Assembly: GCA_964404925.1 (NCBI GenBank)
Contig: CAYOLW010000001.1
Coordinates: 2,106-66,105 of the forward strand
Source: an uncultured Candidatus Saccharibacteria bacterium
Lineage (GTDB): Bacteria; Patescibacteriota; Minisyncoccia; Phycocordibacterales; UBA9973
Reading direction: 5' to 3'
Length of the DNA stretch: 64,000 nucleotides
This document shows positions 10,692-27,830 of the stretch, piece after piece. The notes beneath the pieces are model-generated. The model saw only the letters and a list, made by a program, of their open reading frames with translations. It did no database searches and was not told where the DNA came from. The position numbers were made by a program, and so were the translations under genes. Position 1 is the first letter of the stretch, and each line of letters opens with the position of its first letter.

Positions 10692-10696
10692 CTTAA

Positions 10697-13600
10697 ATGT
10701 TTAAACTAAAAACAAAAATTTTATTATCTATCGCGCTATTGTTAACAACAATACCTATAACCACCTTAGCAGCTTTATATGTTGAGGTTATACCAGTAAC
10801 ACAAAAAAATTTAACGAGTGCAACATTGGTTGGGGTACTAATGGATGATGCTTTTCCAACAGGTGTAAGTACTGAGTATGTAAAATTTAGATATACCACA
10901 ACATCCAGTACTTCATGTGCAAACATGACAACCGAAACAGCAGTACAAACAATAAATTTAGATTTCCAATTACATGAATTTTATAATTTTCAACAACAAT
11001 TAAATTCACTTACTCCACACACTAAATATTACTTTTGTGCTGTAGCTTCTAGTGAAGCAGATTTTTCTGCAAACGTTCTTTATAGTGGAATAAGAGATTT
11101 CACAACAGAACTGCCTCCAGACTTGGCAGATAATGTTGTGACAGGTACCGCAAGTAATATAACACAAAACGGTGCAACAATATATGGAGAAATTTACAAT
11201 GATCACAGCACTCCTATATTTGGAAAATTTAAATATTCAGAAAATTATTCTGTTAGTTGCGCATCATTACCTAATGCTATAAACACACCAGTTCAACCTC
11301 CTGGTGGTGTTGGTGCATCATTGTCTCTTAATTTTTCACACACGTTAACTAACCTAAAAAGCAGCACCACATACTCTTATTGTGCTGTCGGTGATACTAA
11401 CTCTGATTTTCCAAATGCAATTTATGGAGAGGTTAAAGTATTTACTACGCCACCTTCTGCTTCTGGTAATCCAGAAGATATTGGACCAGTTGATACGCAA
11501 GAATCTACGGAAATGGATGACAATGAAGTTACTTTGCAAGGTAATTATTCAGGGGGGGCACCTGGTTTTGCATATTTTAGATTAACAAGTGCTACTGTGC
11601 CTCCTCTTTTTTGTAATGATATTTATGGTTCAGATATGATTGGTATAACCTCTAATGAACCAGACCCTATTGGGTATACAACTGGCGGAGATTTTTCTGT
11701 ACATGTTAACGGACTTGAACCAGAAACAACATATTTTTATTGTGCTATTGTTTCTAACAATGCGCTAACAACAAAATTAAATAAATTAACCTATAGGCCT
11801 CAAATAAAATATGGATCAGTTAAATCATTTAGAACTTTACCTTGTTTAACTTGTAATATTACACAAGTAACAACACTTGGTTCAAATGTAATTGATTCAC
11901 AAAGCGTCAATTTAAAAGGTTCTTACAGAACAAGCAGGCCTGTAAAAATATATTTTGAGTATAGTAAAGATTTTGATGTAAGTACCCCGCCCACAAGTGG
12001 TAATGTTTGGATTCCAACAAACCCACCAAAACTTGGAGGTTTTAATTCTTATGGTAACTATAATTTTTTACTTACTGGACTTGATAGCAATACTAAATAC
12101 AGTTTCAGAATAGTTGGAGAATTAGCTATTGGTGGTGAAATAATCTACGGATCTACTCTAGACTTTACAACAGATGCTTATGATGGTGTTGACCCTATAA
12201 TAACAGAAGACCCTGTAGATGATGTTCCAGTTGAACCAGGTGGAGAAGGTGGAGGTGATGATAATTGTCCAGCTGGAACAATAGGTATATTTCCTGATTG
12301 TACTGTTGGTGAAATAGGCTGTCCAGCAGGATATGAAGGAGTGCCACCAGATTGTGTTAATCTGGGAGGAGGAAGCGGGGATGATGACGCACCGGTTGTA
12401 GAAGTAACAGCTGATCCAATATTTGTTGATCCCGGACAGTCTTCTACTATAACTTGGACTTCTACTAATGCGACGTCTTGTGTTTTAAACGGATACGACA
12501 TACCAACATCAGGATCTGCTGATACTGGTGCTCTCAATACGAGTAAATCGTATTCAGTAATTTGTACAGGACCGGGTGGAGTTGGTTCTGATAATGCTCA
12601 AGTCTACGTAAACATAACAGGCGGAGGTGGGGGTGGTGACATTATCTGGGTTAAAGCTTTGGCTGCACCAGTTTTTGTCACAACAAACAGTTCCTCTGTT
12701 GTATCATGGCAATCAAGCGGTGCAGAATTTTGTGAATCTGGTGGACATGGAAATGGTACTAGCGGTTCTTTTAACACTGGACCACTTACTAGTTCAATGT
12801 CCTACACAATTTCTTGTAGTGGACAATCTGGCAGTGCAGCAAGCACTGCATACATAGAAACACATGATCCTGTTACTCCACCATCTTGTTTCGCAGTACC
12901 ACAAACCCAGTCACTACAATGTCCTGCTGGACAGGTAGGTCTGATCTTACAATCTCGCAGTTCAACTTGTCCTGATCCAAACGGTTCTCCTGTTTGGTCA
13001 AATTGGGAGACAGTGACCAACTCTTGTCAGAGTTCAAGTGGTGGTCCAACTCCACCATCTTGTTTCGCAGTACCACAAACCCAGTCACTACAATGTCCTG
13101 CTGGACAGGTAGGTCTGATCTTACAATCTCGCAGTTCAACTTGTCCTGATCCAAACGGTTCTCCTGTTTGGTCAAATTGGGAGACAGTGACCAACTCTTG
13201 TCAGAGTTCAAGTGGTGGTCCAACTCCACCATCTTGTTTCGCAGTACCACAAACCCAGTCACTACAATGTCCTGCTGGACAGGTAGGTCTGATCTTACAA
13301 TCTCGCAGTTCAACTTGTCCTGATCCAAACGGTTCTCCTGTTTGGTCAAATTGGGAGACAGTGACCAACTCTTGTCAGAGTTCAAGTGGTGGTCCTGGAG
13401 GACCAGGTAGTGGAGTGTTTCCACCGGGACCAGGTAATCCATGGAGCCCTACTGGACCCGGAGGCCCTGGCGGCCCCAATGGTAATGGCGGTACAAACCC
13501 AACCCTACCACAAGGACCAGATAACGATGGTGATGGACTTGGTAATCCAAACGATGATGATACAGACGGGGACTGGGATCCAAATGGAACAGATACAGAC

Positions 13601-14239
13601 GATGATGGTGATGGGATTCCTGATTTAGTTGATGCGACTCCAAACGGACCTGGAAATTCTGATGATTTAGACGGTAATGGAGTAGGTAATGACAAAGACA
13701 ATGATATTGATGGTGATGGTGTACCCAACTATCTAGACAACGATACTGATGCAGATGGTATTCCAAATGCTACAGATTCAGACGATGATGGTGATGGGAT
13801 TCCTGATTGGCTTGACCCTTTACCAAAAGGTCCACACGGAGATAAGGTTGGAGTTATTTTGGGGGTAGGGGATGAGGCCATACCACCTTCGGACGCAATC
13901 GTTCATTATAACGAAGGTGTAGAGACTGTTTTTGCTAGACAAATCAGAAATCGCAACAAACTTTCAGAGAAGTTAGGATATTCAGGCAGAGGCAACCTAG
14001 AATCATTTGCTCAAAATATGGCTCATACACTCTCTCGATATTACTTTGGTTATGTTGACGAAAGCGGCAAAGAAGTGCGTGTGTCAGTACCTGATGTTTC
14101 AGCATATGAGTTGAGGATTGTTGGCAACAAATTAGCTGTTTATGAATATTATCGAAACAAAATAATAGATATACGAGTGCAAAGCATCCAATTCAAGAGT
14201 AAGAATCCGTACGAATATTATTTCCAGAAAAGGTTTTAG
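10697..14239 (+). CDS. Giant surface protein or adhesin (1180 aa). It has a signal peptide, repeated Ig/FN3-like modules, three identical 58-aa Cys-containing tandem repeats, thrombospondin-type-3-like Ca-binding Asp-rich repeats and a C-terminal globular domain.
   Basis: The signal peptide is LLSIALLLTTIPITTLAA. Recurrent module endings are YYFCAV, YSYCAVGD, YFYCAI and YSFRIV...FTT. The DxDxDGxxDxxD-type repeats are DNDGDGLGNPNDDDTDGDWDPNGTDTDDDGDGIPD and related copies. Confidence 0.6.
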   Translation: MFKLKTKILLSIALLLTTIPITTLAALYVEVIPVTQKNLTSATLVGVLMDDAFPTGVSTEYVKFRYTTTSSTSCANMTTETAVQTINLDFQLHEFYNFQQQLNSLTPHTKYYFCAVASSEADFSANVLYSGIRDFTTELPPDLADNVVTGTASNITQNGATIYGEIYNDHSTPIFGKFKYSENYSVSCASLPNAINTPVQPPGGVGASLSLNFSHTLTNLKSSTTYSYCAVGDTNSDFPNAIYGEVKVFTTPPSASGNPEDIGPVDTQESTEMDDNEVTLQGNYSGGAPGFAYFRLTSATVPPLFCNDIYGSDMIGITSNEPDPIGYTTGGDFSVHVNGLEPETTYFYCAIVSNNALTTKLNKLTYRPQIKYGSVKSFRTLPCLTCNITQVTTLGSNVIDSQSVNLKGSYRTSRPVKIYFEYSKDFDVSTPPTSGNVWIPTNPPKLGGFNSYGNYNFLLTGLDSNTKYSFRIVGELAIGGEIIYGSTLDFTTDAYDGVDPIITEDPVDDVPVEPGGEGGGDDNCPAGTIGIFPDCTVGEIGCPAGYEGVPPDCVNLGGGSGDDDAPVVEVTADPIFVDPGQSSTITWTSTNATSCVLNGYDIPTSGSADTGALNTSKSYSVICTGPGGVGSDNAQVYVNITGGGGGGDIIWVKALAAPVFVTTNSSSVVSWQSSGAEFCESGGHGNGTSGSFNTGPLTSSMSYTISCSGQSGSAASTAYIETHDPVTPPSCFAVPQTQSLQCPAGQVGLILQSRSSTCPDPNGSPVWSNWETVTNSCQSSSGGPTPPSCFAVPQTQSLQCPAGQVGLILQSRSSTCPDPNGSPVWSNWETVTNSCQSSSGGPTPPSCFAVPQTQSLQCPAGQVGLILQSRSSTCPDPNGSPVWSNWETVTNSCQSSSGGPGGPGSGVFPPGPGNPWSPTGPGGPGGPNGNGGTNPTLPQGPDNDGDGLGNPNDDDTDGDWDPNGTDTDDDGDGIPDLVDATPNGPGNSDDLDGNGVGNDKDNDIDGDGVPNYLDNDTDADGIPNATDSDDDGDGIPDWLDPLPKGPHGDKVGVILGVGDEAIPPSDAIVHYNEGVETVFARQIRNRNKLSEKLGYSGRGNLESFAQNMAHTLSRYYFGYVDESGKEVRVSVPDVSAYELRIVGNKLAVYEYYRNKIIDIRVQSIQFKSKNPYEYYFQKRF
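12875..13396 (+). repeat. Perfect 3 x 174-bp in-frame tandem repeat inside the adhesin gene. Each unit encodes ...PPSCFAVPQTQSLQCPAGQVGLILQSRSSTCPDPNGSPVWSNWETVTNSCQSSSGGPT.
   Basis: The unit boundary actccaccatcttg recurs at 12875, 13049 and 13223. The three units are identical at every base I compared. Confidence 0.9.
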
Positions 14240-14313
14240 TAGATTTGAGTGAATTGTTAGTCTTATAAAATAGTTTTTGTGTAGCTAATTTGATAGAATA
14301 TTATTAGTTACGA

Positions 14314-17049
14314 ATGAATTTTTCAAAGAAAAAAATTGGTAGAAAAATAGTGTTGTGGACACTGGTCTTGTACTTTGTATTTTTTCCTATTGCTAACACC
14401 TACGCTCAAAACTCAGGAACAACTGGTACCGTCAACAACAACACATATGCAACCAGTGGCGAAACATTGCTTCTTAATAAAGATTTAAGCACTGTAACCA
14501 ATACAACAGCATCGCTTAGTTTTACCGCTAGTACTACTCGCGAAGACCAATACGAACCTCTTTTAGTCAGAATTTATAAAGATAGCAATTTAAACGATGG
14601 AGATAATTCCGGGGTTTGGGATTATTCTACTAATACTGTACCAGCCGGCGTAGAAGAAGCAGTTTTGTGGCAAACAGCTGTTTTAGCCAGTAATACACCG
14701 GGACAAATAAAAGAAGTTACTTTTAGTTCCCTGGAACCAAACACTAATTACTTTGTTGTTGCTTATTTGTATAATGTTAATAAAATTGGTCTGCCATTTT
14801 TCTCTGGAGATTGGGATACTTTAATTACGGTAAATCTAACACTGACAACAGCCAAGGCTGTGGATACACTAGGTACTGTTAATAGTGTGGGTGGATCTAA
14901 TTATCACAATGACCCAGGTCCGGATTTAGGATGTTCTCCTTTATTTTTTGCTACACTAAAAAATTGTTTAGGTGCATTGTTTTACTACGTACTCTATGAA
15001 CCAGCAGCAGCCTTGGCACGACTTGCAGCGCACTTCTTGGACTTCTTTGTTTACTATGCAACTAATAGTGATTCATATAGATCAGAATTCGTACTAAAAG
15101 CTTGGGGGGTTGTAAGAGACGTTTCTAATATGTTTTTCATTGTGGCGCTTATGGTTTTAGCAATACGGATGATACTCGATATAGACAAGGCTCACGTTAA
15201 AAAAACATTGTCTGTCATAATACTAGTAGCACTAGTTATTAACTTTAGTTTATTTATTACTCGAGTGGTTATTGATGCTTCAAACATTCTAGCTAAAGTT
15301 TTCTACAACAACATTTCTTCTGTGGATGCATATGGTAACCCAACAGTTGGTGAAAGTGGAGAAAAATCTATAACCATAGGACTAACTAAGGTCATAGACC
15401 CAGTTAAAATAGTCAATAAACCACAAGACAACCTGAAGAACTTTATTTTTGTGGTATTTCTTTGTTTCTTCCTTATGCTTGGAATGGCATGGATATTCTT
15501 TACCAGCGCTTTGTTTTTCGTAGGGCGGGTAATATCACTATGGTTCTCAATGATTTTTGCGCCACTGGCCTTTATATCATACGCAGTGCCATTTAAAATA
15601 CCTGAATATGGACACACCGAATGGTGGAGTGGTTTATTCAAGGCTGCCTTTATGGCGCCATTGTTTGTATTTTTCTTGTATATAACAGCTTTGTTTGGTG
15701 GTACACTCGGCGCAATACCAGGAGACATTGCAAATGCAGACGATTGGTTTATGTCAGTAGTAGGGGAACTTGTACCATTCATACTTATATTCGGATTATT
15801 AAAAGCAGCTCAAAAAATAGCTAAAGAATATTCAGGTAAATTTGGCGATATGGTAAGTAAAACTGGTGCTGTATTGGGTACATTGGCCCTCGGCGGTGCA
15901 GGACTCGCAACCGCTGCTTTAGGTAGAAAATTCATAGGTTCACAAATTGCTAAAGGTTCACAAAGTCAGAAAGCAATGGATTGGGCGGGGCATAGAATGA
16001 AGTTTGATGAACAACTTAATCAATGGAAGGCCTCAAGCAAAAAAACTCGTGGAGCTAAACCAACCTGGGACCAATATTCTAAGAGTAATGGTGTTGATAG
16101 AAATAATATGGGCTTACGCGAAAGACTGGGAGCTCGTGCTAATTATTCTAAACTAAAAGTTAAGAGTGTTGAGCATGCTCGCCACGAACTTGAAGAAACA
16201 AAGAAGAAGCTTGGTTATGAAGGGGTTAATAACAATCAACTAGGTGGACAAGCTCAAAAAGATATTAAAGATCAATTCTTAAAAGACCATAAGTCAGAGT
16301 TTGAGAACTCAGTTAGGAACGGTAACGAGGTTCTGGTTGTTAATGTAAACGGAATAGACACTATTGTAAAAGGCCAAAATGAATACGAGGCAACCATGCG
16401 AAAAGTACTAAGTAAAGAAGTTTTGGGTGATGGCGATAAGACAAAAGAAGCTGAAGCAATTAAAGACGGTGATGCCATGTATAAACGTGTTGATAAAATA
16501 GACCCTGCAACAGGCCAAGTAATGAAAGACTCTCGTGGAAGGAAACTCACCGAAGATAAACTAGTATTAACTGATCAGGGTAGGAAGAAGGTAGAAAATA
16601 GACTGCATACAAGCTACAACAAAGAGGTTGGTGAGAAGGTCAAGAAAATGTCTGAAGTTAAGTATGAACATCTAGAAACAGAAGCAAAAATGAAATTAGG
16701 GGTTAAAGACAGACTGTCTGCTAGATCTGATGTTGGTACATATGACACCAGGAATCTGTCTCAGATAATTACCAAAATGTCTGCCAAAGATAAAATGTGG
16801 ATGGGAGGTATCCTTGGGTTAATGGTTGGAGGCATACGTGGCGGATTTAAGTCATTAAAACTAGACATGGGCAAAGGCCAAGGCGATTGGAAAAAGGACC
16901 TCGGTAGTACTATTACAGAAGCCTTGAAGAAGGCACCATCTGATTTTAAAGTTAATGTCAATCTAAGTGGTGGAGGAGGTGGAGGGGGAGGACATGGTGG
17001 CGGCGGCGATCATGGCGGTGGACACGGGGGAGGACATGGAGGACACTAA
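14314..17049 (+). CDS. Polytopic membrane protein (911 aa) with a secreted N-domain, a multi-TM core, a long charged cytoplasmic tail and a Gly/His-rich C-terminus. The topology is VirB6/TrbL/TcpH/PrgH-like.
   Basis: A signal/anchor sequence is followed by at least six hydrophobic helices between about aa 200 and 520. The protein sits two genes upstream of VirB4. The C-terminus is GGGGGGGHGGGGDHGGGHGGGHGGH. Confidence 0.45.
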   Translation: MNFSKKKIGRKIVLWTLVLYFVFFPIANTYAQNSGTTGTVNNNTYATSGETLLLNKDLSTVTNTTASLSFTASTTREDQYEPLLVRIYKDSNLNDGDNSGVWDYSTNTVPAGVEEAVLWQTAVLASNTPGQIKEVTFSSLEPNTNYFVVAYLYNVNKIGLPFFSGDWDTLITVNLTLTTAKAVDTLGTVNSVGGSNYHNDPGPDLGCSPLFFATLKNCLGALFYYVLYEPAAALARLAAHFLDFFVYYATNSDSYRSEFVLKAWGVVRDVSNMFFIVALMVLAIRMILDIDKAHVKKTLSVIILVALVINFSLFITRVVIDASNILAKVFYNNISSVDAYGNPTVGESGEKSITIGLTKVIDPVKIVNKPQDNLKNFIFVVFLCFFLMLGMAWIFFTSALFFVGRVISLWFSMIFAPLAFISYAVPFKIPEYGHTEWWSGLFKAAFMAPLFVFFLYITALFGGTLGAIPGDIANADDWFMSVVGELVPFILIFGLLKAAQKIAKEYSGKFGDMVSKTGAVLGTLALGGAGLATAALGRKFIGSQIAKGSQSQKAMDWAGHRMKFDEQLNQWKASSKKTRGAKPTWDQYSKSNGVDRNNMGLRERLGARANYSKLKVKSVEHARHELEETKKKLGYEGVNNNQLGGQAQKDIKDQFLKDHKSEFENSVRNGNEVLVVNVNGIDTIVKGQNEYEATMRKVLSKEVLGDGDKTKEAEAIKDGDAMYKRVDKIDPATGQVMKDSRGRKLTEDKLVLTDQGRKKVENRLHTSYNKEVGEKVKKMSEVKYEHLETEAKMKLGVKDRLSARSDVGTYDTRNLSQIITKMSAKDKMWMGGILGLMVGGIRGGFKSLKLDMGKGQGDWKKDLGSTITEALKKAPSDFKVNVNLSGGGGGGGGHGGGGDHGGGHGGGHGGH

Positions 17050-17055
17050 AAATAT

Positions 17056-18036
17056 ATGGATAAAGAAGATTTACAAAAAGTAATAGCAGAATATCACACA
17101 AGGTTGTCACCAAGGCTACAACAAGTTTTCTCTTCGCTTGGCTGGCTAGAAACATTGAAATCAATTGGGGACAGGTACAAACTCGACGATTCTCAAATGA
17201 ACGACCTCTCAATAGAGACAACCATGCTTATGCTTGGGGCTACGCACTGGAGTGACTATGCCAAACATTTGTTTGATGTAATGAAACTACCTCAATCTAA
17301 ACTAGACGAAGTGTTGGGTGAAATAAAAACTTTCGTCTATGGACCAGTAGAAGAAGAATTATCTGACGCTTACTATATTAATGCAATAATTCTAGAAGAG
17401 GTTGAAAAAAACATGGTTGAAGAAGAAAGCAAGTTAGTGCAGGCTGGTCTTGATGAAAGATTCAAGAAACTTGAACCAAGGATTCAGAAAATTGTACAAG
17501 ATTCTAATTATCAAGTTAAAATTTATTCAATTGGTAAAAGGAATAATTTAACCTTTGCCCAAATAACTGAACTAGAAGAAGTTATTACTGAAACAATATT
17601 AGGGAATATTCCCATAGACAAGTTCGAGGGGGAACTAAAAAACCGAGCGAACCTACCCACAGAAAGAATGGATTTTATTGTTAACGAAGTAAACGATAAA
17701 ATCCTTAGAGATATTAGAAGCTCAATCTTAAGTCTGGGTAGGCAGTCTGAAAACAAAGAAAATAGTCTAACTCTAAAACCAAACCATTCTATTTCTAATA
17801 GATTAAACATTAGTATTGAAGCAGAAAAGAAATTAGCCCCAATCGAACCAGAAAAAAAAGAAGAAGTATCCTCCACAAACTCAATCATAGCAGCTAAAAT
17901 GCAAGATTCTTTTAGTATGCCTAAAGTTACAACTGAATATACAATTGGTAAAATAAGCAAAGAATCTGACAAACCAACAACTAATACTGAAGTAAAAAAA
18001 TGGAGTGATCCATACCGCACAGATCCCAACGAATAG
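17056..18036 (+). CDS. Hypothetical soluble protein (326 aa) in the T4SS-like cluster.
   Basis: The ORF is tightly packed against its neighbours and no family is recognised. Confidence 0.4.
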   Translation: MDKEDLQKVIAEYHTRLSPRLQQVFSSLGWLETLKSIGDRYKLDDSQMNDLSIETTMLMLGATHWSDYAKHLFDVMKLPQSKLDEVLGEIKTFVYGPVEEELSDAYYINAIILEEVEKNMVEEESKLVQAGLDERFKKLEPRIQKIVQDSNYQVKIYSIGKRNNLTFAQITELEEVITETILGNIPIDKFEGELKNRANLPTERMDFIVNEVNDKILRDIRSSILSLGRQSENKENSLTLKPNHSISNRLNISIEAEKKLAPIEPEKKEEVSSTNSIIAAKMQDSFSMPKVTTEYTIGKISKESDKPTTNTEVKKWSDPYRTDPNE

Positions 18037-18090
18037 TATCGTTTTAATTCAAATACTTGTATAATAGATAAAGTCCAAAGGACTTTATCT

Positions 18091-18519
18091 ATGCAATTTA
18101 AAGTTCCACAATTTTTAGATATTGAAGACAAGATATTCGGCCCATTTACTTTTAGCGAATTCGTTTATTTAGCAGGAGGGGCAGGTCTGTGTTATGTGCT
18201 TTTTAAATTGCTTGGTTTTTTTGTAGGTTTTGTACCGATACTTTTGGTTGGTGGATTTTCTTTGGCTTTAGTTTTCTATAGACCAAACGGTAAACCTTTT
18301 ATAAATATGGTTGAGAATAGTATTAGTTACTATACTCAAAACAGATTATATGTATGGAAAAGACAAGACAGAAGTGATAATAAAAACAAACAACCAATAA
18401 ACAATGCAGTGTTAACAGAAAATGAACACATAGTTAAATTAAACAAAAGTAAACTTAAGGATTTATCATGGAGTTTAGATGTACTTGATGTTAAAAACAA
18501 AAGTGAAGAAAATATTTAA
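18091..18519 (+). CDS. Small two-TM membrane protein. Its size and its position immediately upstream of VirB4 are VirB3/PrgI-like.
   Basis: Two hydrophobic helices are YLAGGAGLCYVLFKLLGFFVGF and VPILLVGGFSLALVFY. The assignment rests on position alone, without sequence-family support. Confidence 0.3.
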   Translation: MQFKVPQFLDIEDKIFGPFTFSEFVYLAGGAGLCYVLFKLLGFFVGFVPILLVGGFSLALVFYRPNGKPFINMVENSISYYTQNRLYVWKRQDRSDNKNKQPINNAVLTENEHIVKLNKSKLKDLSWSLDVLDVKNKSEENI

Positions 18520-18524
18520 TTAAA

Positions 18525-19175
18525 ATGGCACTAAACGCACGCGCAACTCAAGATTTTGTACCTATCAAAGAAGTAAGAGATGGGGTAATAATGCTAAAAG
18601 ATGGCAGTTTGCGTGCCGTTGTTTTGGCTAATTCTATAAACTTATCTTTAAAATCAGAAGACGAACAAAAAGCTACTATTATGCAATTTCAGTCTTTCTT
18701 GAATACATTAGACTTCCCGGTACAAATTTCTATTCAATCAAGACGTTTAGATATTAGACCTTATTTATTACTCTTGGAGAATCGAGTGAAGGTACAAACA
18801 GAACCCTTGCTTAAAATGCAAACACAGGAATATATGGAGTTTATTCGAAGTTTTACAGATACGGTTAGTATTATGACAAAAAGTTTCTTTGTGGTTGTGC
18901 CGTATACAGAATCGGTGGTAACCGAAAACAGCAATCCTCTATCTAAGCTACTTGCTTTTGGTAATAAAAAAAATGTAGCTTTAGAAGTAGAAATGGATTT
19001 CGAAGAAAAAAGGTCACAACTAGAACAACGTGTTGGTGTTATACAACAAGGTTTGTCTCGATGTGGAATAAAAACAGCACAGCTCGGCACCGAAGAGGTA
19101 ATTGAGGTATTATATAAAGTATTTAATCCAGGCGAATTAGAAGGTAAAATAAAATTAGAAAACACAGAACAGTAA
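18525..19175 (+). CDS. VirB4/TrbE-like N-terminal region (216 aa), encoded as a separate ORF from the ATPase part.
   Basis: The stop TAA at 19173-19175 is followed one nt later by the ATG of the ATPase ORF, in a different frame. Together the two ORFs give 827 aa, a typical VirB4 size. The N-terminal-domain pattern FVPIKEVRDGVIMLKDGSLRAVVL is like Gram-positive VirB4 N-termini. Confidence 0.5.
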   Translation: MALNARATQDFVPIKEVRDGVIMLKDGSLRAVVLANSINLSLKSEDEQKATIMQFQSFLNTLDFPVQISIQSRRLDIRPYLLLLENRVKVQTEPLLKMQTQEYMEFIRSFTDTVSIMTKSFFVVVPYTESVVTENSNPLSKLLAFGNKKNVALEVEMDFEEKRSQLEQRVGVIQQGLSRCGIKTAQLGTEEVIEVLYKVFNPGELEGKIKLENTEQ

Positions 19176-19176
19176 T

Positions 19177-21012
19177 ATGGGATTATTTGATTCAATTTTA
19201 GGTGGTGACAAAACGGACAACAATAAAAAGCCGACAATATTGCCGATACTACCTGAGGAAATACACGAATCAGCGGCACTAGAACTCCAAGACGTAATTG
19301 CGCCTTCAGCTTTAAAAATAAATCCTAAATCTATCAATCTGGGGGATAAAATAGCTCGAACCTTCTTTATTATTTCTTATCCTAGATATTTGGCCGATAA
19401 CTGGTTTTCTCCAATTATTAACTTGGATCAAATTTTTGATGTATCAGTATATGTAAATCCAGTAGACACTTCTTTGGCAATGCGTCAGTTCCAAAAGAAA
19501 GTGGCTGAGGTAGAAAGCCAGATCAATACTCGTGAATCCAAAGGTATTGTACGTGACCCAATGCTAGACACAGCTTACCAGGATTTAGAAGAACTACGAG
19601 ATAAACTTATTCAAGCTCAAGAAAAGATGTTCGATGTAGGTATTTACATAACTATCTATGCTAATAATGAAATGGAGCTTTTTAAGGTTGAGAACGAAGT
19701 AAAATCCATTTTAGAATCAAAATTAATATACATTAAACCAGCCCTTTTCCAGCAAGAAGAAGGTTTTATGAGCGTGGTGCCTGTAGATACCGATAGGCTT
19801 AATATTACCCAGAGATTAAATTCTGAACCACTTTCTTCTGTGTTTCCTTTTATTTCTTTTGACTTAACTTCAGATAAAGGAATATTGTATGGTGTCAATA
19901 GACACAATTCTTCTTTGGTTATTTTTGATCGATTTTCTCTTGAGAACTATAACTCTGTTACTTTTGCTAAATCAGGTAGTGGTAAAAGTTATGCTACAAA
20001 ACTAGAAATTTTACGTAGTCTAATGTTTGATATTGATGTCATTGTCATAGACCCTGAAAGGGAATATGAATTCTTGTCTGAGGCTGTAGGAGGAAGGTAC
20101 TTCAACATCTCTCTTTCCTCAGATCACCACATAAACCCATTTGATTTACCTGTTCCCAGAGAGGACGAAACACCAGAAGACGTATTACGCTCAAATATAA
20201 TTAACTTGGTTGGTTTATTTAGATTGATGCTAGGTGGACTAACACCCGAAGAAGATGCTTTAGTTGACCGGGCGATATCTGAAACATACGCTATTAAAGA
20301 CATTACACCAGACTCTGATTTCACTAATATTGAACCTCCACTTTTGTCTGACTTTGAAATGGTTCTTTCTGGAATGGAAGGTTCTGAGTCTGTTGTGCAG
20401 AGATTGGTAAAATATACCAAAGGTTCTTGGTCCACGTTCATTAACCGACCGTCCAACGTAGATATCAACAAAAAGTTTGTTGTTTTCTCTGTTCGTGATA
20501 TGGAAGATGAATTAAAGCCAATCGCCATGTATATAGTTACTCACTATATATGGAATACAATCCGTAAAAACCTAAAGAAAAGACTTTTAGTAGTGGACGA
20601 GGCTTGGTGGATGATGAAATCTGAAGACACAGCATCTTTCTTGTATTCACTAGCTAAAAGAGGCCGCAAATACTATCTAGGTCTGGCTACAATAACTCAA
20701 GACGCTGCGGACTTTATGAAATCTCCGTACGGTGTACCTATTGTTACCAACTCATCAATCCAAATACTCCTCAAACAATCCCCAAGTACCATTGAAGTGC
20801 TCCAAAAGATATTTAATCTAACCGATGAAGAAAAATATCTTTTACTTGAATCTGGGGTAGGGGAAGGTATATTCTTTGCCGGTTTGAAGCATGTTGCTAT
20901 TAAGGTTGTAGCTTCTTACACAGAAGATCAAATCATTACTTCAGACCCATCACAAATATTGGCTATCAAAAAATCAAAAGACGATTTTGAAGAAGTGTCA
21001 CAAGGAAAGTAA
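19177..21012 (+). CDS. virB4: Type IV secretion/conjugation ATPase VirB4/TrbE/CagE-like (AAA_10/DUF87 type), C-terminal ATPase part.
   Basis: Walker A is AKSGSGKSY and Walker B is LLVVDEAW. The arrangement of RGRKYYLGLATITQD and the C-terminal TEDQI region is typical of VirB4-family ATPases. Confidence 0.85.
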   Translation: MGLFDSILGGDKTDNNKKPTILPILPEEIHESAALELQDVIAPSALKINPKSINLGDKIARTFFIISYPRYLADNWFSPIINLDQIFDVSVYVNPVDTSLAMRQFQKKVAEVESQINTRESKGIVRDPMLDTAYQDLEELRDKLIQAQEKMFDVGIYITIYANNEMELFKVENEVKSILESKLIYIKPALFQQEEGFMSVVPVDTDRLNITQRLNSEPLSSVFPFISFDLTSDKGILYGVNRHNSSLVIFDRFSLENYNSVTFAKSGSGKSYATKLEILRSLMFDIDVIVIDPEREYEFLSEAVGGRYFNISLSSDHHINPFDLPVPREDETPEDVLRSNIINLVGLFRLMLGGLTPEEDALVDRAISETYAIKDITPDSDFTNIEPPLLSDFEMVLSGMEGSESVVQRLVKYTKGSWSTFINRPSNVDINKKFVVFSVRDMEDELKPIAMYIVTHYIWNTIRKNLKKRLLVVDEAWWMMKSEDTASFLYSLAKRGRKYYLGLATITQDAADFMKSPYGVPIVTNSSIQILLKQSPSTIEVLQKIFNLTDEEKYLLLESGVGEGIFFAGLKHVAIKVVASYTEDQIITSDPSQILAIKKSKDDFEEVSQGK

Positions 21013-21023
21013 AGTGTTATAAT

Positions 21024-22037
21024 ATGCAAAGCATGTTTAATAAAAATATGTTAAGAAAAACATCTCTATTAATCTTGGTTTTGTCTTTTATTGTTTCCTT
21101 TACAGGAGTGAACAATGTTTTTGCACAACAAATTCAAGATAACGATATATTGATGAGCGTATATCCCAAATATCCAAAACCAGGGGATAATGTTCGTGTC
21201 TCAATTAACAGTTATACTGTTAATCTTGATAAGTCGTTTATTGTTTGGTCTTTAAATGGGGAAGAAAGGTCTAGGGGAATCGGTAAAAAGACATTTTCTT
21301 TTGACTTAGAAAAAACAAATAGTCAAAATCAGGTTACAGCTTCTATTGATTTGGTGGGTGGTATTACTGTTGTTAAAAGTAATACTATTGTTGCTTCGGA
21401 TATAGACATGCTTTGGGAAGCGGTAGATTCATACGTACCACCATTTTATAGAGGCAAGGCCCTTGGTGTACAAGACGGTAGTTTCAAGATTGTTGCTATA
21501 CCGAGTATTTTGTCCTCTGGTGGAAAAGTAAGCCCTAACAACCTTTCATATGTTTGGAAAAAAGACGGTGATGGCCAAGTAGGCGCTTCTGGTTTTGGTA
21601 AAAATTACCTTATCTTTACTAAAAGCTACCTTGATTCAGAAAACGAAATAGAGGTTGAAGCATCAGATATTGAAGGCAAAGTAAAAACAGGTAATAAAAT
21701 TATGGTGACAGGTTTAAAGAAACCAAAGGTTGTCTTATATAAAAAAGACTCTAAAATAGGCTTTAGATTAAACCAAGCACTGAGTGATAATTATAGTATT
21801 TCCGAACCAACAACAATAATTGCAGTTCCGTACTTCTTTTCTTTTAGCAATATCAATTCAGAGGATATGGCTTTTACCTGGTCAGCGGGCGGTAAACAAA
21901 TACAACCAAACAGAAATAAAAATGAAATAACAGTTATTCCACCCAAAGAAAGGGGTGGTACTGATATTTCATTAGCAGTAGAAAAAGCTAATTCTTTCTA
22001 CCAGAGTGTTAAAAAAAGGATCAATGTTGATTTTTAA
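21024..22037 (+). CDS. Secreted hypothetical protein (337 aa), predicted beta-rich.
   Basis: The signal peptide is LLILVLSFIVSFTGVNNVFAQQ. Confidence 0.45.
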   Translation: MQSMFNKNMLRKTSLLILVLSFIVSFTGVNNVFAQQIQDNDILMSVYPKYPKPGDNVRVSINSYTVNLDKSFIVWSLNGEERSRGIGKKTFSFDLEKTNSQNQVTASIDLVGGITVVKSNTIVASDIDMLWEAVDSYVPPFYRGKALGVQDGSFKIVAIPSILSSGGKVSPNNLSYVWKKDGDGQVGASGFGKNYLIFTKSYLDSENEIEVEASDIEGKVKTGNKIMVTGLKKPKVVLYKKDSKIGFRLNQALSDNYSISEPTTIIAVPYFFSFSNINSEDMAFTWSAGGKQIQPNRNKNEITVIPPKERGGTDISLAVEKANSFYQSVKKRINVDF

Positions 22038-23100
22038 TGAAAAAATAAAAAAGGTTACTGCTTTTATTTTTATACTGTTCTTTTGTGTTGGTTTTATAAT
22101 AAAAACACCTGTAATTATAGCCCAGGACCCTTGCACAACAGATTCAGATGGTGATGGACTTGTGGATGGAATGGATCCAATAAATGATACAACCAGCCAA
22201 ACTAATCCAAATATAATAAATTGTAATGAATTACAAAACACTCAAAATGATAGCGATGTAACATACACACTACTCGAACCTATTGGTGATTTGAGTAAAT
22301 TTAATGCAACTCAACCTTGTCCTTTGGTTGATTATATTAATAAATTTATAAAAATATTCCTTGGTATTTGTGCTGCACTTGCTATGGTGATGATTGTTGT
22401 TGGGGGACTCCAATACATGACCAGTGAATTATTGTCTTCAAAAGAAGCGGGAGTTAAGCAAATTCAAGGCGCGGCTTTTGGTTTTATTATGGCACTGGCC
22501 GCTTATGCTATTTTAAACACCGTTAATGCTGATTTACTTAACTTCTGTCCACACATACCAGATGCAAAAGTAACAGTTGTTGAAGATATAAGTGACGAGG
22601 CAACCACCTTAACAGGTGGAGGTAAAGCAACATACCACCCATACAAAGCTTATTCTCCTAATAATGCTTGCCCAGGACAACCAGGTAAAGAAACAAGCAC
22701 TTGTGTAAAAATGAACACAACTAATTTACCTAAAAAATATGATCAGAGTTTAGAAAAAGACACTCTAGATAAAATGGTAATATTTGATAACATCATGCGT
22801 TCTAAAGGAATTGTATGGTATGTGACTGAAGGGTGGCCAGCATCTAGCTCACATAAATCTAGTTGTCATGGTAATGGAACATGCTTAGACTTAAATACAC
22901 CAAACGCAACACCAGAAACAGTTAAATTAATGATTGGCGGTTTAATAGCTGTTGGTATGTGCCCAAACTATGAAATTTTACAGTCTGGAGGTATTACCAG
23001 GGAACAACTTAATGCTATTGGTATTCCCGATGCACGTATTTGGGTTACCAAAGGTACAGGGGCTCATATACATGTTGTTAATGCTAGGTGTGGTAGTTAA
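22006..23100 (+). CDS. Membrane-anchored cell-wall peptidase. An N-terminal anchor and Asp-rich Ca-binding-like motif are followed by a pilin-like double hydrophobic helix and a C-terminal LAS/M15 (VanY-like) metallopeptidase domain.
   Basis: The M15/LAS signature S-x-H-x-x-G-x-[AC]-x-D appears as SCHGNGTCLD, and HxH appears as GAHIHV near the C-terminus. The TSP3-like motif is TDSDGDGLVDGMDP. The paired hydrophobic helices are FLGICAALAMVMIVVGG and AFGFIMALAAYAIL. The start may instead be the in-frame ATG at 22024. Confidence 0.5.
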   Translation: MLKKGSMLIFNEKIKKVTAFIFILFFCVGFIIKTPVIIAQDPCTTDSDGDGLVDGMDPINDTTSQTNPNIINCNELQNTQNDSDVTYTLLEPIGDLSKFNATQPCPLVDYINKFIKIFLGICAALAMVMIVVGGLQYMTSELLSSKEAGVKQIQGAAFGFIMALAAYAILNTVNADLLNFCPHIPDAKVTVVEDISDEATTLTGGGKATYHPYKAYSPNNACPGQPGKETSTCVKMNTTNLPKKYDQSLEKDTLDKMVIFDNIMRSKGIVWYVTEGWPASSSHKSSCHGNGTCLDLNTPNATPETVKLMIGGLIAVGMCPNYEILQSGGITREQLNAIGIPDARIWVTKGTGAHIHVVNARCGS

Positions 23101-23125
23101 TCTGCTATAATATATTTAAATAAAT

Positions 23126-24442
23126 ATGTCCAAAAAAAATATAATTCTTTTAGCTGTTTTAATACTAATCATTGGACTGGTTGTGCTAGTTGCGTCTTTG
23201 CCTAAAAAAAGCAACGAGCCGGGTAGCGAAGGTGGAACAAACTTTTTCTCTGATTTATTTAATTTAGTTGGATTAAAGAACAAAAACTCTGATGATGGCA
23301 CACCAACCAAAAACATAGGTGGCACACCAGGCGGGGAAGAGGCAAGAGGTTCTTTATTTAAAATGTCTTCAATGCCTGTGGCAGGTTTTGGTGTATTAAA
23401 AAGAGAAGTTTACACTTATGTAGCACCACCAGAAGTAACAGATTTAGCTTCCAGCACTGAAAATGATACCAGAACCAATACTTTAAGTGTTCCAGAAACA
23501 GAATACAAACTAGATGTTAGATATGTTACAGCTGAAAATGGCAGTATCTATCAATATGACATTGAAAACGGACAAGAAAAGAAGTATTCAAGCTCTGTAC
23601 TACCGTATATGTACGAAGCCTTTTTTGGTAAAAATGCCTCATCAATTGCACTCAGATATATATCAGTGAACAAGCCAACAATCGAGACTTTTGTTCGTCA
23701 GTTACCAGAAGACCTACTGGGTTCAGATGCTGAACCTGAGGATAAAATATCTGGTAATTTCTTACCTCAAAACATAAATGATATTTCTATTTCTCCGGAT
23801 GGTATGAATATGTTTTATCTTTTAAAGATTTCATCCGGGATATCCGGCACTGTAGCGTCTTTGTCTGGTGCAAATAAAAACCAGGTGTTTGATTCAAGTT
23901 ATACAGAGTGGCTGTCTCAGTGGCCAAACAAGGATTTAATCACTGTTACGACCAAACCTGCTGCTGGTATTCCAGGTTTTATGTATGGAATCAATCCAAA
24001 CATAAAAGACTTTAAAAAAATATTAGGGGGTGTTAATGGTTTAACCACACTTACTAGCCCAAACGGTAAACTAGTCTTGTACTCTGCCGATGATTTAAAT
24101 CTATACTTATATGACACAGAAGAGAATAATTCAAAAAATTTAAATGTTCGTACATTACCTGAAAAATGTGTTTGGGGTGCATTAAGTGATCGTGTTTTTT
24201 GTGCTGTACCCCAGTATATTAATACTGATAAATACCCGGACTCTTGGTACCAAGGAGAAGTCTCTTTTATAGACTCATTAGAAGAAGTTTCTTTAACAGG
24301 TGGATTGCCTATCACTTTGACAAAAGAAGGGGAGGTTATTGACCCGATAGACGCAATTAAACTAACATTAAGTGAAGATGGCAACTTCTTGTTCTTTATG
24401 AATAAGAAAGATTTATATCTATGGGGTTTGCGTTTAAAATAA
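23126..24442 (+). CDS. N-terminally anchored extracytoplasmic protein (438 aa) with TolB/PD40-like beta-propeller repeat signatures.
   Basis: The transmembrane segment is IILLAVLILIIGLVVLVASL. Repeat-like segments are SPDGMNMFYLL and SPNGKLVLYSADDLNLYLYD. Confidence 0.35.
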   Translation: MSKKNIILLAVLILIIGLVVLVASLPKKSNEPGSEGGTNFFSDLFNLVGLKNKNSDDGTPTKNIGGTPGGEEARGSLFKMSSMPVAGFGVLKREVYTYVAPPEVTDLASSTENDTRTNTLSVPETEYKLDVRYVTAENGSIYQYDIENGQEKKYSSSVLPYMYEAFFGKNASSIALRYISVNKPTIETFVRQLPEDLLGSDAEPEDKISGNFLPQNINDISISPDGMNMFYLLKISSGISGTVASLSGANKNQVFDSSYTEWLSQWPNKDLITVTTKPAAGIPGFMYGINPNIKDFKKILGGVNGLTTLTSPNGKLVLYSADDLNLYLYDTEENNSKNLNVRTLPEKCVWGALSDRVFCAVPQYINTDKYPDSWYQGEVSFIDSLEEVSLTGGLPITLTKEGEVIDPIDAIKLTLSEDGNFLFFMNKKDLYLWGLRLK

Positions 24443-24443
24443 A

Positions 24444-24923
24444 CTAGATTTGCCCTACATACCTAATAACCACACGCCTATCGCGGCCAACACCATTTGA
24501 TTCTGTTTTTAAATCATTAGCGAGTGACAATATCTCATGTACAATCCTCCTGTCGTAGGCAGACATTGGCTCAAGCTCTATGCTTGATTTAAAGTACCTT
24601 GCTCGCTCTGCCATCATATGGACTAAACTTTTCAAAGTCTCAATCTTTTTCTTTTGAAAACCATTTATATCAACTACAATGTTTTCGTTTGGGGTTTTAC
24701 TTGTTGGATTTTTTGATTCAACGATCCTGCGAACAATATGATTAAGTGCTTGCAGCGCTTCTCCTTCGCGGCTTAGAAATGGGTGAGCATTATTAAGCTC
24801 AACAGAGAAACAGTGACCACCTAATTCATCGTCTAAAACACACTCAGTAACAACAACATTATCTGAAACGTTAGTTTTATCAATTAGTTCTTTGATTATT
24901 GTTTTTATTTCTTCTTTGTTCAT
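24444..24923 (-). CDS. jag: Jag/KhpB-like RNA-binding protein with an R3H domain.
   Basis: The gene lies downstream of yidC in the conserved rpmH-rnpA-yidD-yidC-jag order. The R3H-type motif is YDRRIVHEIL. Confidence 0.65.
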   Translation of the reverse strand: MNKEEIKTIIKELIDKTNVSDNVVVTECVLDDELGGHCFSVELNNAHPFLSREGEALQALNHIVRRIVESKNPTSKTPNENIVVDINGFQKKKIETLKSLVHMMAERARYFKSSIELEPMSAYDRRIVHEILSLANDLKTESNGVGRDRRVVIRYVGQI

Positions 24924-24927
24924 ATAT

Positions 24928-25656
24928 TTATTTTGTGTTTAAAGTAAGAACCTCTTTTTTCTTGGCTAAATATATCTGTTGCAGGGTAGCAAAAACATTA
25001 CTTGTTATCCAATATAATGCAATTGCCCCAGAAATGCTATAGGCAATAAAGGTAACAACAACAGGGAAGACATATTTCATTTGAATTTGTAAGCTTTTTT
25101 GTAGACTTTCATTAAAAGAACCCTTGGTTGCAGTACTAACTGGTGGCTTAGGCATAAAATACGCTTGGAGGAACTGAGACAAACCAGCCAAAACAGCTAA
25201 AATAATACTTTTACTTGTTAGGTCCAACAAACCTAGGAAATTATTACTAGTAATTGTTGGTATTGGGGTAAAGGAGTACAAAGTGCTTGGATCTATATTT
25301 ATACCTTTATAGAAAGCATAGTATAAAGCAAAAATAATCGGTATCTGAATTAAAACCAGTAAACAACCTGAAAAAGGATTGGTTTTGTTTGTTTTATATA
25401 ATTCAAAAGTTAGTCGAGCTTGTTCTTCTTTGGTCTTACCAGAATTCTTTATTTTATCAATTTCAGGCTGTATCAGGTTCATTTTAACCTGACTTTTTAT
25501 AGATTTACTAGCCAAAGGGAAGAGGATTACCTTGACCAAAACGGTTAATAAAATAACAGCTAAGCCGATATCCCCACCAGGAACCAAGGCCACAAAAGCA
25601 GCCAACAGGTTAACCATTGGTTTATAAAGTAGCATTTCCCATAAACTATGTAACAT
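24928..25656 (-). CDS. yidC: Membrane protein insertase YidC/Oxa1 (short form).
   Basis: Five hydrophobic helices are present with a conserved YidC core (PLASKSIKSQVKMNLIQPEI, LIQIPIIFALY). The operon position is conserved. Confidence 0.85.
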   Translation of the reverse strand: MLHSLWEMLLYKPMVNLLAAFVALVPGGDIGLAVILLTVLVKVILFPLASKSIKSQVKMNLIQPEIDKIKNSGKTKEEQARLTFELYKTNKTNPFSGCLLVLIQIPIIFALYYAFYKGINIDPSTLYSFTPIPTITSNNFLGLLDLTSKSIILAVLAGLSQFLQAYFMPKPPVSTATKGSFNESLQKSLQIQMKYVFPVVVTFIAYSISGAIALYWITSNVFATLQQIYLAKKKEVLTLNTK

Positions 25657-25692
25657 CCAACCATTCTATACTAAAAGAACAGAATTTCAAAG

Positions 25693-25902
25693 TTATGGCA
25701 CAGGATCTATATGGTTCTTTTGCCAAGGATGGCAACGCAAAATCCTAAAAAAGCTTAAAACTACACCTTTAAGTGCACCATGTTTTTGTATTGCTTCTTT
25801 TGCGTAACTTGAACAGGTGGGGTAAAAGACACAAGAGGGTTTTTTGAGCGGACTTATGTTTTTCTGATATAAATCAATTAATTTTATTAAGTATTTTTTC
25901 AA
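25693..25902 (-). CDS. yidD: Membrane protein insertion efficiency factor YidD.
   Basis: YYQKNISP...[23 protein letters not shown] matches the YidD hallmark CxFxPTCSxY. Confidence 0.8.
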
Positions 25903-26200
25903 CGTCTTGTTTGATTAATTCAGTGTTTATTTCTTTATTTTTTAAAGTAAAAACACCATTAAAACCCAACGGGAGTTTATGCATAAAACTCTTTATAGCT
26001 AAATAACCCTTTCTTTTTAAGGCATTTCTCTTGTTGGCTAGTTTTTCCACCTTCTTAGAAACAACAAAAGACACCTTAGGTGGTGTTTTTAAGGTGCTTT
26101 TATAAAATTTAAGGCCTACATTTTTACCCCAAAAAGAAACACCTTTTTGAAAAACAGTGCCCACATCCTTTCTAGTTGTTCTATTTTTCTTAGGTAGCAT
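25874..26200 (-). CDS. rnpA: RNase P protein component RnpA.
   Basis: A basic 108-aa protein lies immediately downstream of rpmH and contains RnpA-like [10 protein letters not shown]. Its start overlaps the rpmH stop in a TAATG junction. Confidence 0.85.
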
Positions 26201-26346
26201 TAAGCCTTCTTTTGCACTGCCAGGCGAGCTCGTCCTTTTTGACGTCTTCGGGCCAGAACCTTTTTACCATTCTTAGTCTTGTTTCTAACTAAAAATCCGT
26301 GGGTTTTGGCTCGTTTTCGTTTTTTAGGATTATATGTTTGTGACAT
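26200..26346 (-). CDS. rpmH: 50S ribosomal protein L34. It is absent from the ORF track because it is under 60 aa.
   Basis: Manual minus-strand translation gives [48 protein letters not shown]. This is the classic L34 sequence. Confidence 0.85.
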
Positions 26347-26483
26347 TCGGGAAGTATACTGTAAAAGCAGGCTAAAGTCAAAACCCTTATTTATTAAAAT
26401 ATATATCTTATCAACAGGTTATTAACATATTTTATAACTTTTAATAATTTGTGTATTAGGTCTCGAATAGTATAATTTGTCCC
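26347..26483 (+). promoter_or_regulatory. rpmH/dnaA divergent control region. It holds DnaA-box-like sites and a dnaA promoter whose TATAAT is 7 nt from the ATG.
   Basis: TTATCAACA is an 8/9 DnaA box. TTGTGT, a 16-nt spacer and TATAAT at 26466-26471 lie just before the ATG at 26484, so dnaA is possibly leaderless. Confidence 0.4.
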
Positions 26484-27830
26484 ATGGATACTAAACAGCT
26501 TTGGAAAAATTGCTTGGGGGAGATTGAACTTGGTGTTTCAAAAGCTAATTTCAGTACTTGGTTTAAAAATACCAGTATTGTTAAGGAGGATGGTGGTGTT
26601 ATATACATCGGTGTACCTAATGAATTCGTAAGAGACTGGCTGAAGAATAAATATCATAAACTAATAACCAAAACCCTTACAGATACCTACGACACATTAC
26701 GCGCTGTTGAATACATAATAAGTAAAACAGACCACAATAAAGCAGAACCGGCTCCGGTTATCGCTGAAAGCACTATAAACAAAGAGTTACCCCTAAAAGA
26801 CCTTTATGTCAGCCCAGAAGACAACCTAAATCCACGCTATCGTTTTGATTCTTTTATTGTTGGTGGTTTTAATGAGTTAGCTTATGCGGCCGCACAAGCA
26901 ATCATCGAATCTCCTGGTACAAAATACAATCCATTTTTTGTATATGGTAATACAGGGCTTGGGAAGACCCACTTATTACAGTCTGTTGGTAATGGTATTA
27001 AAGAAAAATACCCAAACAAAAAGGTTTATTACCTAACTTTGGAGAAATTTGCTACAGATTTTATAAATTCACTCCAAGGGAACAAAGCCAACTCTTTCAA
27101 AGAAAAATATAGAAAATATGACCTATTAATCATAGATGATATTCAATTTATTGGTAAAATGGAGAAAATACAAGAAGAATTGTTTCATACTTTCAATACT
27201 TTTTATGAAAGTAATAAACAAATTATATTTTCTTCTGACAAACACCCAAACTATATACCTGAATTAGCTGACCGGCTCAAGTCTCGTTTCGCTGCTGGTA
27301 TGATTGTGGATGTTTCAGAGCCAGAATATGAGTCTAGATTAGCTATTCTAAAAATAAAAACAAAAGAACAGGGTATTGAGTTAGAACAAGACAGCCTAGA
27401 ATTCGTGGCTTCGTCTATTCGAGGGAATATAAGAGAGCTTGAAGGTTGTCTAAACTCAATCGCATGCCAAGCAAAACTAAAAGGGAAGCAATTGTCTTTA
27501 GTAGAGATCAAAAACATACTTAAGAACAATATAAAACCCAAGAAAACAGTAGCTGTAAAAGATGTGGTTAAGATAGTTAGCGACCATTACAACATCGAGG
27601 AAGCCGCTGTATACGACAAAACAAGACGTAAAGAAATTGTACGTGCTAGACAATTAATAATGTATATCTTGCGGGAAGATTTTAATGTTTCCTACCCTTT
27701 AATTGGACAGAAACTTGGTGGTAAAGATCACACAACCGTTATTCACTCTTATTTAAAAATTAAAGAGGACTTAAAAAATGATCCACAGTTATTACAAGAG
27801 TTGGAGCAGGTGCGTATTATGTTTAAATAG
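26484..27830 (+). CDS. dnaA: Chromosomal replication initiator DnaA.
   Basis: Walker A is GNTGLGKTHL and the box is IDDIQFIGKMEKIQEEFFHTFN. The C-terminal DNA-binding domain has the DnaA signature ...IGQKLGGKDHTTVIHS. Confidence 0.95.
   Translation: MDTKQLWKNCLGEIELGVSKANFSTWFKNTSIVKEDGGVIYIGVPNEFVRDWLKNKYHKLITKTLTDTYDTLRAVEYIISKTDHNKAEPAPVIAESTINKELPLKDLYVSPEDNLNPRYRFDSFIVGGFNELAYAAAQAIIESPGTKYNPFFVYGNTGLGKTHLLQSVGNGIKEKYPNKKVYYLTLEKFATDFINSLQGNKANSFKEKYRKYDLLIIDDIQFIGKMEKIQEELFHTFNTFYESNKQIIFSSDKHPNYIPELADRLKSRFAAGMIVDVSEPEYESRLAILKIKTKEQGIELEQDSLEFVASSIRGNIRELEGCLNSIACQAKLKGKQLSLVEIKNILKNNIKPKKTVAVKDVVKIVSDHYNIEEAAVYDKTRRKEIVRARQLIMYILREDFNVSYPLIGQKLGGKDHTTVIHSYLKIKEDLKNDPQLLQELEQVRIMFK

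Follow-up and report, generated by a model that had tools for sequence, protein, structure and literature searches.

We analyzed a 64,000-nucleotide (nt) stretch of contig CAYOLW010000001.1 (assembly GCA_964404925.1, labeled as an uncultured Candidatus Saccharibacteria bacterium), hereafter the window, in which two adjacent open reading frames (ORFs) of 216 and 611 amino acids (aa), ORF1 and ORF2, together resemble a single VirB4 ATPase of a type IV secretion system (T4SS). With high confidence, the two ORFs are distinct genes, oriented alike, within a chromosomal T4SS cluster of the monoderm type (like those of the mating-pair formation class MPF-FATA) with the order prgI(virB3)–trsD-like–virB4, carried by a Nomurabacteria/Paceibacteria-like member of the Patescibacteria. 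The gene split is genuine, conserved and already known, and the locus is an ordinary instance of an arrangement published by Quiñonero-Coronel et al. (2025, Microb Genom, PMC12102498). A full-length VirB4 begins with ~210 residues that are represented here by the trsD-like protein; selection maintains a separate stop and start for each gene, and in the sister lineage Colwellbacteria the two are fused.

A sequence-only reading of the window had described a 216-aa ORF followed by a 611-aa ORF with Walker A and B motifs, and direct inspection of the sequence confirmed all of its coordinates (Table 1). The two products sum to 827 aa. A lone T at 19176 lies between the ORF1 stop and the ORF2 ATG, and ORF2 is in the +1 frame relative to ORF1; the junction string gaacagtaatatgggatt is found at 19167–19184, with ORF1 ending in ...IKLENTEQ and ORF2 beginning with MGLFDSILGGDK.... 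Upstream of its ATG, the ORF2 frame is open only from 19159, being closed by a TAG at 19156–19158. Both frames are therefore jointly open over only ~17 nt, and a single ORF could be restored only by an indel within that interval. A second assembly (Logan, run SRR12762285) was identical to window positions 18490–20545, with 0 mismatches in 2,056 bases including the junction, which argues against an assembly error, with a weight limited by the possibility that this run represents the same sample as the source genome.

To place the junction in context, we examined relatives of ORF1 at three scales. A search covering 5.8 billion proteins found ~8,000 homologues; the best 120 of these were all stand-alone proteins of 211–221 aa, 72–79% identical to ORF1 (save one cluster with ORF1’s own sequence) and derived from Nomurabacteria, Paceibacterota and Patescibacteria assemblies. 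A library clustered at 50% identity contained 2,357 relatives, and among the best 150 of these 148 had no ATPase fusion and 2 were long proteins; 86 were 195–260 aa, 43 were 261–450 aa with low-complexity tails and 19 were shorter than the 195–260-aa class, some being clearly fragments. Finally, the junction itself was analyzed in loci from 80 species-representative genomes, 79 of which have downstream DNA, and whose proteins are 71–79% identical. The ORF1 stop occurred at the equivalent position in all 79, using TAA in 60, TAG in 16 and TGA in 4 of the related loci, with ORF1 lengths mostly 212–222 aa. In every one of the 79 a virB4 gene followed, and nearly all complete copies of it encoded 611–636 aa. 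That the lineage has a real and conserved two-gene split, one of four explanations that the sequence-only reading had offered, is thus borne out by the 79 loci, by the ~8,000 homologues (the best 120 stand-alone) and by the published TrsD–VirB4 adjacency.

The same loci show that the +1 frame junction, which had been presented as the defining feature, is incidental. Relative to the trsD-like gene, virB4 is in frame 0 in 21 loci, +1 in 34 and +2 in 24, and the spacer ranges from −8 to >100 nt (median 14), being 0–10 nt in 35 of the 79; with all three frames in use and spacers this variable, the offset carries no meaning. Long spacers frequently contain stops in all three frames, and relatives retain the ORF2 ATG together with an N-terminal M-x-(I/L/F)-F motif. 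One locus (L019) seemed to encode a fused 834-aa ORF, a candidate that we rejected: its DNA contains a TAA that tblastn had aligned through, and L019 is split.

This pattern bears directly on a programmed +1 ribosomal frameshift near CAG-TAA-T, which would yield one 827-aa VirB4. Such a mechanism would suit two ORFs that lie 1 nt apart in a +1 relationship and have the summed length of a normal VirB4, and fused orthologues do exist elsewhere. However, the frame is not conserved and the 21 same-frame pairs are separated by a stop; spacers of 40–120 nt hold stops in all frames; and no slippery or Shine–Dalgarno (SD)-stimulator motif was found in 19159–19175, the sole permissive stretch. Conservation of the downstream ATG and N-terminal motif points instead to independent initiation, and some spacers carry hairpins and TATAAT-like words. 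The variable frames and spacers of the 79 relatives refute this option, to which we assign practically no chance of being correct.

A recent pseudogenizing frameshift, or an assembly or sequencing error, in a single virB4 is also very improbable. Single-base indels are common in metagenome assemblies, and one apparent split within the fused clade (P0289, locus L083, discussed below) is indeed an assembly artifact caused by a run of Ns. Against this, the stop is common to all 79 species-level relatives, despite their limited identity, rather than private to the window; the closest homologues share ORF1’s stand-alone length; both ORFs are intact and highly conserved; and the junction recurs unchanged in the separate Logan assembly. 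Together, the stop, frame and spacer pattern of the 79 loci excludes both a programmed frameshift and a private frameshift mutation, and the conserved stop and identical second junction argue against an assembly error.

Regulatory signals around the junction were also surveyed. A promoter and terminator scan of 10000–26500 returned nothing at the trsD–virB4 junction; across that region promoter-like sites were at the level of shuffled sequence and terminator-like sites somewhat above it (18 versus 10.3 in shuffles, s.d. 3.2). Only 4 of 39 likely genes in the window have an SD-like motif ahead of them, so the missing SD before ORF2 is normal here and uninformative. Many window genes instead have a TATAAT-like word upstream, within ~5–15 nt of the start codon (for example, 21004–21023, 23106–23125, 26464–26483, 43408–43427 and 46260–46279), which suggests leaderless or very short-leader mRNAs.

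Three side observations concern the related loci rather than the window. Spacers of 47–121 nt are often long imperfect palindromes of short repeated words (xTAGGC...GCCTAx, AAGCTA...TAGCTT), as at L008 4640–4692, L030 4640–4720, L013 4640–4755 and L017 4643–4717; RNA folding of long spacers gave −25 to −39 kcal/mol, with z of −3.7 to −9.8 in 4 of 6 tested, and the spacers of several relatives also hold TATAAT-like words. Such elements might act as internal promoters, or as hairpins for processing, stability or termination. In addition, L041 (JAGVYL010000035.1), titled ‘Candidatus Woesearchaeota archaeon’, has a TrsD-like gene 74% identical to ORF1 and is probably a mis-binned Patescibacteria contig, not a source of an archaeal gene. 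The label ‘uncultured Candidatus Saccharibacteria’ is likewise attached to many close relatives that have Nomurabacteria or Paceibacterota as their nearest named kin.

ORF2 encodes the ATPase core. Its best model is the NCBIfam CD1110-family VirB4 (NF045971), matched at 368.3 bits (cutoff 325) over profile positions 183–733 of 752, so that the first ~180 positions are missing from ORF2; Pfam reports P-loop_TraG (E = 1e-23), AAA_10 and DUF87. The Walker A and B motifs noted by the sequence-only reading are present and fit the GxxGxGK[ST] and hhhhDE consensus sequences of VirB4-family P-loop ATPases. Among aligned fused homologues, the corresponding residues are invariant (G460, G462, K463 and S464 for Walker A; D667, E668 and W670 for Walker B, in the numbering of P0240, a naturally fused VirB4 described below). 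Judged by these profile matches, ORF2 comprises a second VirB4 N-terminal module and the P-loop ATPase domain.

ORF1 supplies the missing part. It matched N-terminal positions of four NCBIfam VirB4/TrsD profiles with E values from 4.5e-12 to 1e-4, including positions 102–237 of 894 in VirB4_plasma (Mbov_0397 VirB4; E = 4.5e-12), 2–128 of 752 in CD1110 VirB4 and 4–177 of 792 in TIGR00929. The fourth, TrsD/TraD (NF041427), was matched over its full length, with ORF1 residues 8–201 aligned to positions 15–200 of 201 (E = 1.8e-6). Precomputed tables assign the Pfam family PF26593 ‘TraC-like’ to an identical protein and to all homologues, including the N termini of fused forms. The AlphaFold2 model of ORF1 (mean predicted local distance difference test (pLDDT) score 72) was compared to the Protein Data Bank (PDB) with Foldseek, and 13 of the 15 best matches were TrwK/VirB4 chains from the R388 T4SS (probability 0.94–1.0, query-normalized TM-score 0.4–0.48); a PDB sequence search with ORF1 gave nothing relevant, and VirB4 was retrieved by the fold search only. 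On the strength of the profile and TrwK/VirB4 fold matches, we identify ORF1 as the VirB4 N-terminal module. The likeness to a VirB4 N-terminal domain, without which the sequence-only reading would have abandoned its VirB4 assignment, was found and is not due to chance, as profiles, the alignment to fused VirB4 and the fold all agree. With respect to TrsD, the profile scores place ORF1 as a remote homologue outside the curated TrsD/TraD subfamily.

The two products are collinear with a single VirB4, covering positions 2–128 and then 183–733 of 752 in the CD1110 model, so a complete VirB4 N-terminal domain is present ahead of the ATPase domain but is delivered in two pieces. In an AlphaFold2 model, ORF1 and the ORF2 N-terminal module look alike in how their secondary-structure elements are ordered. 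This prompted the idea of an internal duplication, which was unsupported at the sequence level (BLASTP E = 0.25; hhalign probability 0.2%).

Naturally fused relatives also exist. One of the two long proteins among the best 150 of the 2,357 relatives, P0240 (797 aa), aligned to ORF1 over its residues 1–213 (40% identity, E = 6e-46) and to ORF2 residues 37–602 over its residues 230–796 (56% identity). Searching with P0240 brought the fused group to 118 clusters (P0240 plus 117 others), with lengths of 775–807 aa and 59–90% identity to P0240, and those with a source name are mostly labeled Candidatus Colwellbacteria. The locus of P0240 (L084, at 544–2937) has the order PrgI–VirB4–...–jag–yidC–rnpA–dnaA–dnaN, with jag, yidC and rnpA on the other strand. 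These neighbors are those of the window, which makes the split and fused forms orthologous alternatives that occupy a single locus. In the Colwellbacteria protein the two parts are joined by a ~20-residue linker without a stop codon, and nothing in it corresponds to the tail of ORF1 or to the first ~36 residues of ORF2. The AlphaFold2 model of P0240 (pLDDT 69.5, predicted TM-score (pTM) 0.50) matched full-length TrwK/VirB4 at E = 6e-26, and the short stretch that links its two parts was modeled with lower confidence.

Two ~600-aa proteins inside the Colwellbacteria group, P0289 and P0385, appeared to be unfused. We rejected P0289 (L083) as a real fission: a scaffold gap of Ns (1545–1646) interrupts the N-terminal module, and because of it the gene caller reports a 600-aa protein without the TraC-like domain. 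A second kind of fused VirB4, P0252 (898 aa), has a Pro-rich linker of roughly 130 aa between the parts, which suggests an independent fusion via loss of the stop codon. Some stand-alone TrsD-like proteins, such as P0167 (406 aa) and P0177 (443 aa), carry Pro/Gln-rich, low-complexity C-terminal tails of 150–230 aa.

The trsD-like gene and virB4 are probably co-transcribed in a prgI–trsD–virB4 operon, and the TAAtATG junction could permit translational coupling in this genome. In the solved R388 machine, it is through the VirB4 N-terminal domain that the ATPase attaches to VirB3 and to the inner-membrane complex; here, the two polypeptides probably associate non-covalently, which would rebuild that domain.

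Several observations weigh against this interpretation. The TrsD/TraD score of ORF1 (27.9 bits) is far under the curated cutoff of 200, and a local Pfam hmmscan of ORF1 gave no family at E ≤ 1, PF26593 included, a discrepancy with the precomputed tables that probably stems from a difference in Pfam library version. Translational coupling is not conserved: the spacers of roughly half the relatives are long and contain hairpins. The fused model, as its pTM indicates, positions the two modules against each other with only moderate confidence. The long low-complexity C-terminal tails of many stand-alone relatives would fit a partly independent role for the TrsD-like protein, as would the Gracilibacteria TrsD homologues, which are reported not to be encoded beside virB4 (PMC12102498).

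Taken further, these last two points raise the alternative that the trsD-like protein is an evolutionary offshoot of the VirB4 N terminus that has taken on a role of its own, perhaps as a regulator or an adaptor, and is not a detachable part of the VirB4 motor. The 43 tailed proteins of 261–450 aa among the best 150 relatives and the non-adjacent Gracilibacteria copies speak for it, but fused orthologues occupy the same locus in Colwellbacteria, TrsD tightly adjoins virB4 in all 79 relatives, ORF2 alone is without the first ~180 VirB4 profile positions and the predicted fold of ORF1 matches the VirB4 chain itself. On balance we consider an independent role unlikely and favor two genes whose products jointly form the VirB4 N-terminal domain.

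A broader scheme can be sketched, which we offer as a tentative and, as a whole, rather unlikely possibility. The VirB4 N-terminal domain might be a two-module assembly with a detachable first module; Nomurabacteria and most other lineages would then show the split state, Colwellbacteria the fused one and the P0252 lineage a second, independent fusion. Where split, the TrsD-like protein might serve as a separately dosed subunit controlling ATPase docking on PrgI/VirB3, with the variable hairpin- and promoter-like spacers setting the TrsD-like:VirB4 ratio.

Table 1 Features of the T4SS cluster and its surroundings in the window
Feature	Position	Strand	Basis
ORF1, trsD-like gene, 216 aa	18525–19175	+	ATG 18525, stop TAA 19173–19175
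ORF2, virB4 core, 611 aa	19177–21012	+	ATG 19177, stop TAA 21010–21012
Junction TAA-t-ATG (trsD-like stop, single spacer base, virB4 start)	19173–19179	+	Direct sequence reading
Walker A, GSGKS, ORF2 aa 267–271	19975–19989	+	Motif reading
Walker B, VVDEAW, ORF2 aa 472–477	20590–20607	+	Motif reading
prgI, VirB3-like small membrane protein, 142 aa	18091–18519	+	Pfam PF12666 PrgI, E = 1e-6, 29.6 bits (cutoff 27)
T4SS pilin-like protein, 364 aa	22006–23100	+	Pfam PF18895 T4SS_pilin, E = 3.9e-7, 30.5 bits (cutoff 26.6)
Replication-origin neighborhood flanking the T4SS cluster	24444–29156	both	Pfam matches
jag/R3H	24444–24923	−	Pfam
yidC	24928–25656	−	Pfam
yidD	25693–25902	−	Pfam
rnpA	25874–26200	−	Pfam
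dnaA	26484–27830	+	Pfam
dnaN	28059–29156	+	Pfam
ksgA	5548–6336		

The genes around ORF1 and ORF2 include other T4SS components, namely the PrgI/VirB3-like protein and a protein with a T4SS_pilin domain (Table 1). PrgI lies directly upstream of ORF1, a position also held by PrgI in the fused locus L084 and equivalent to that of the trsC-like gene of the plasmid pSK41. The pilin-like protein additionally matched the NCBIfam Mbov_0395 pilin-like family at E = 6.5e-5, under the cutoff; its GTG start is uncertain, and it shares 32 nt with the ORF upstream. Pfam and NCBIfam recognized no VirB6, VirD4 or relaxase among the flanking ORFs. Large same-strand ORFs without a match in either library lie upstream of prgI (911 and 326 aa, 14314–18036) and downstream of virB4 (337 and 438 aa, 21024–24442), and are candidates for divergent VirB6/VirB8/VirB1-like parts. 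The synteny of the origin region recurs in L083 and L084.

Other features of the window were recorded in passing. A perfect tandem repeat at 12875–13395 (174 bp × 3.0 copies, 100% identity, in frame, 58 aa per unit) has a GC content of 0.449 versus about 0.36 and reflects either a recent expansion or an assembly effect. It lies in a 1,180-aa ORF (10697–14239) with fn3-like and purple-acid-phosphatase-N-like matches, a probable surface protein. Two A/T-rich perfect palindromes, at 63433–63483 (25-nt arms, 1 nt apart) and at 54340–54391 (23-nt arms, 6 nt apart, directly after a tRNA-Arg gene at 54265–54339), resemble hairpins of the kind seen in bidirectional terminators.

For annotation, the 216-aa ORF is best named a TrsD-like, VirB4 N-terminal-like T4SS protein, and annotators should avoid calling the trsD–virB4 pair a frameshifted or pseudogenized virB4. 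The natural split and fused variants could guide constructs for structural or interaction work on the VirB4 N-terminal domain. The system is of broader interest because the Patescibacteria T4SS, found in most members of the group, is reported in the literature to be essential for epibiotic growth in Saccharibacteria and probably has no function in conjugation.

The cluster mirrors the trsC–trsD–trsE layout of the staphylococcal conjugative plasmids pSK41/pGO1, the prototype of the arrangement, which belongs to MPF-FATA (pGO1 subclass). The same three-gene order encodes proteins of 135, 227 and 672 aa in pSK41 and 142, 216 and 611 aa here, and the TrsD-type placement, after a VirB3-like gene and directly before the VirB4 ATPase, is shared by the window, pSK41 and all 79 related loci. 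In the pSK41 record, trsE encodes a DUF87 ATPase and the spacer is 14 nt. ORF2 aligned to pSK41 TrsE over 39–577 (22% identity, E = 4e-30), and the ORF1 family profile aligned end to end with pSK41 TrsD in hhalign (E = 5.8e-5, probability 65%), although direct sequence similarity between TrsD and ORF1 is very low (BLASTP E = 0.02). The pair TraD–TraE of pIP501 is analogous to trsD–trsE. Differences include the best model of ORF2, which is CD1110 (CTn2-type) and not pGO1-type; the chromosomal, origin-proximal setting, with no relaxase seen in the cluster, versus a plasmid system; and the SD GGGAG of pSK41, which has no equivalent before ORF2. The VirB4/TrwK of R388 (PDB 7O41–7O43, 8RTB and 8RTD) and the CD1110-family VirB4 of Firmicutes integrative and conjugative elements are collinear with ORF1 plus ORF2. 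TrwK shares its fold with the models of ORF1 and the fused homologue, and ORF2 has the Walker A and B motifs. In both of these systems VirB4 is a single polypeptide, whereas in the window a gene of its own encodes the first N-terminal module.

The closest counterpart is the TrsD–VirB4 system of Patescibacteria itself, for which the prgI(virB3)–trsD–virB4 layout beside dnaA and dnaN has been described (PMC12102498). A literature search on TrsD/TrsE, and a 2026 paper on pELF plasmids, gave nothing relevant. PMC12102498 does not discuss the junction or its frame, and the passages searched contain no mention of the fused Colwellbacteria form. The TrsD–VirB4 similarity that this paper attributes to Guglielmini et al. 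(2014) is not spelled out in the readable text of that earlier work. According to PMC12102498, TrsD is more abundant in Patescibacteria than any other T4SS component, with 2,272 homologues found, 1,664 of them adjoining virB4, and the S. epibionticum copy is listed as essential; the paper also places Patescibacteria T4SS loci near dnaA, dnaN, rnpA and ksgA. The window shares with this system PrgI/VirB3, a TrsD homologue remotely similar to the VirB4 N terminus, VirB4, a VirB2-like pilin, the gene order and the chromosomal site by dnaA, dnaN, rnpA and ksgA. With its nearest relatives in Nomurabacteria/Paceibacteria genomes and nothing of substance different from that system, it is one more instance of the published arrangement.

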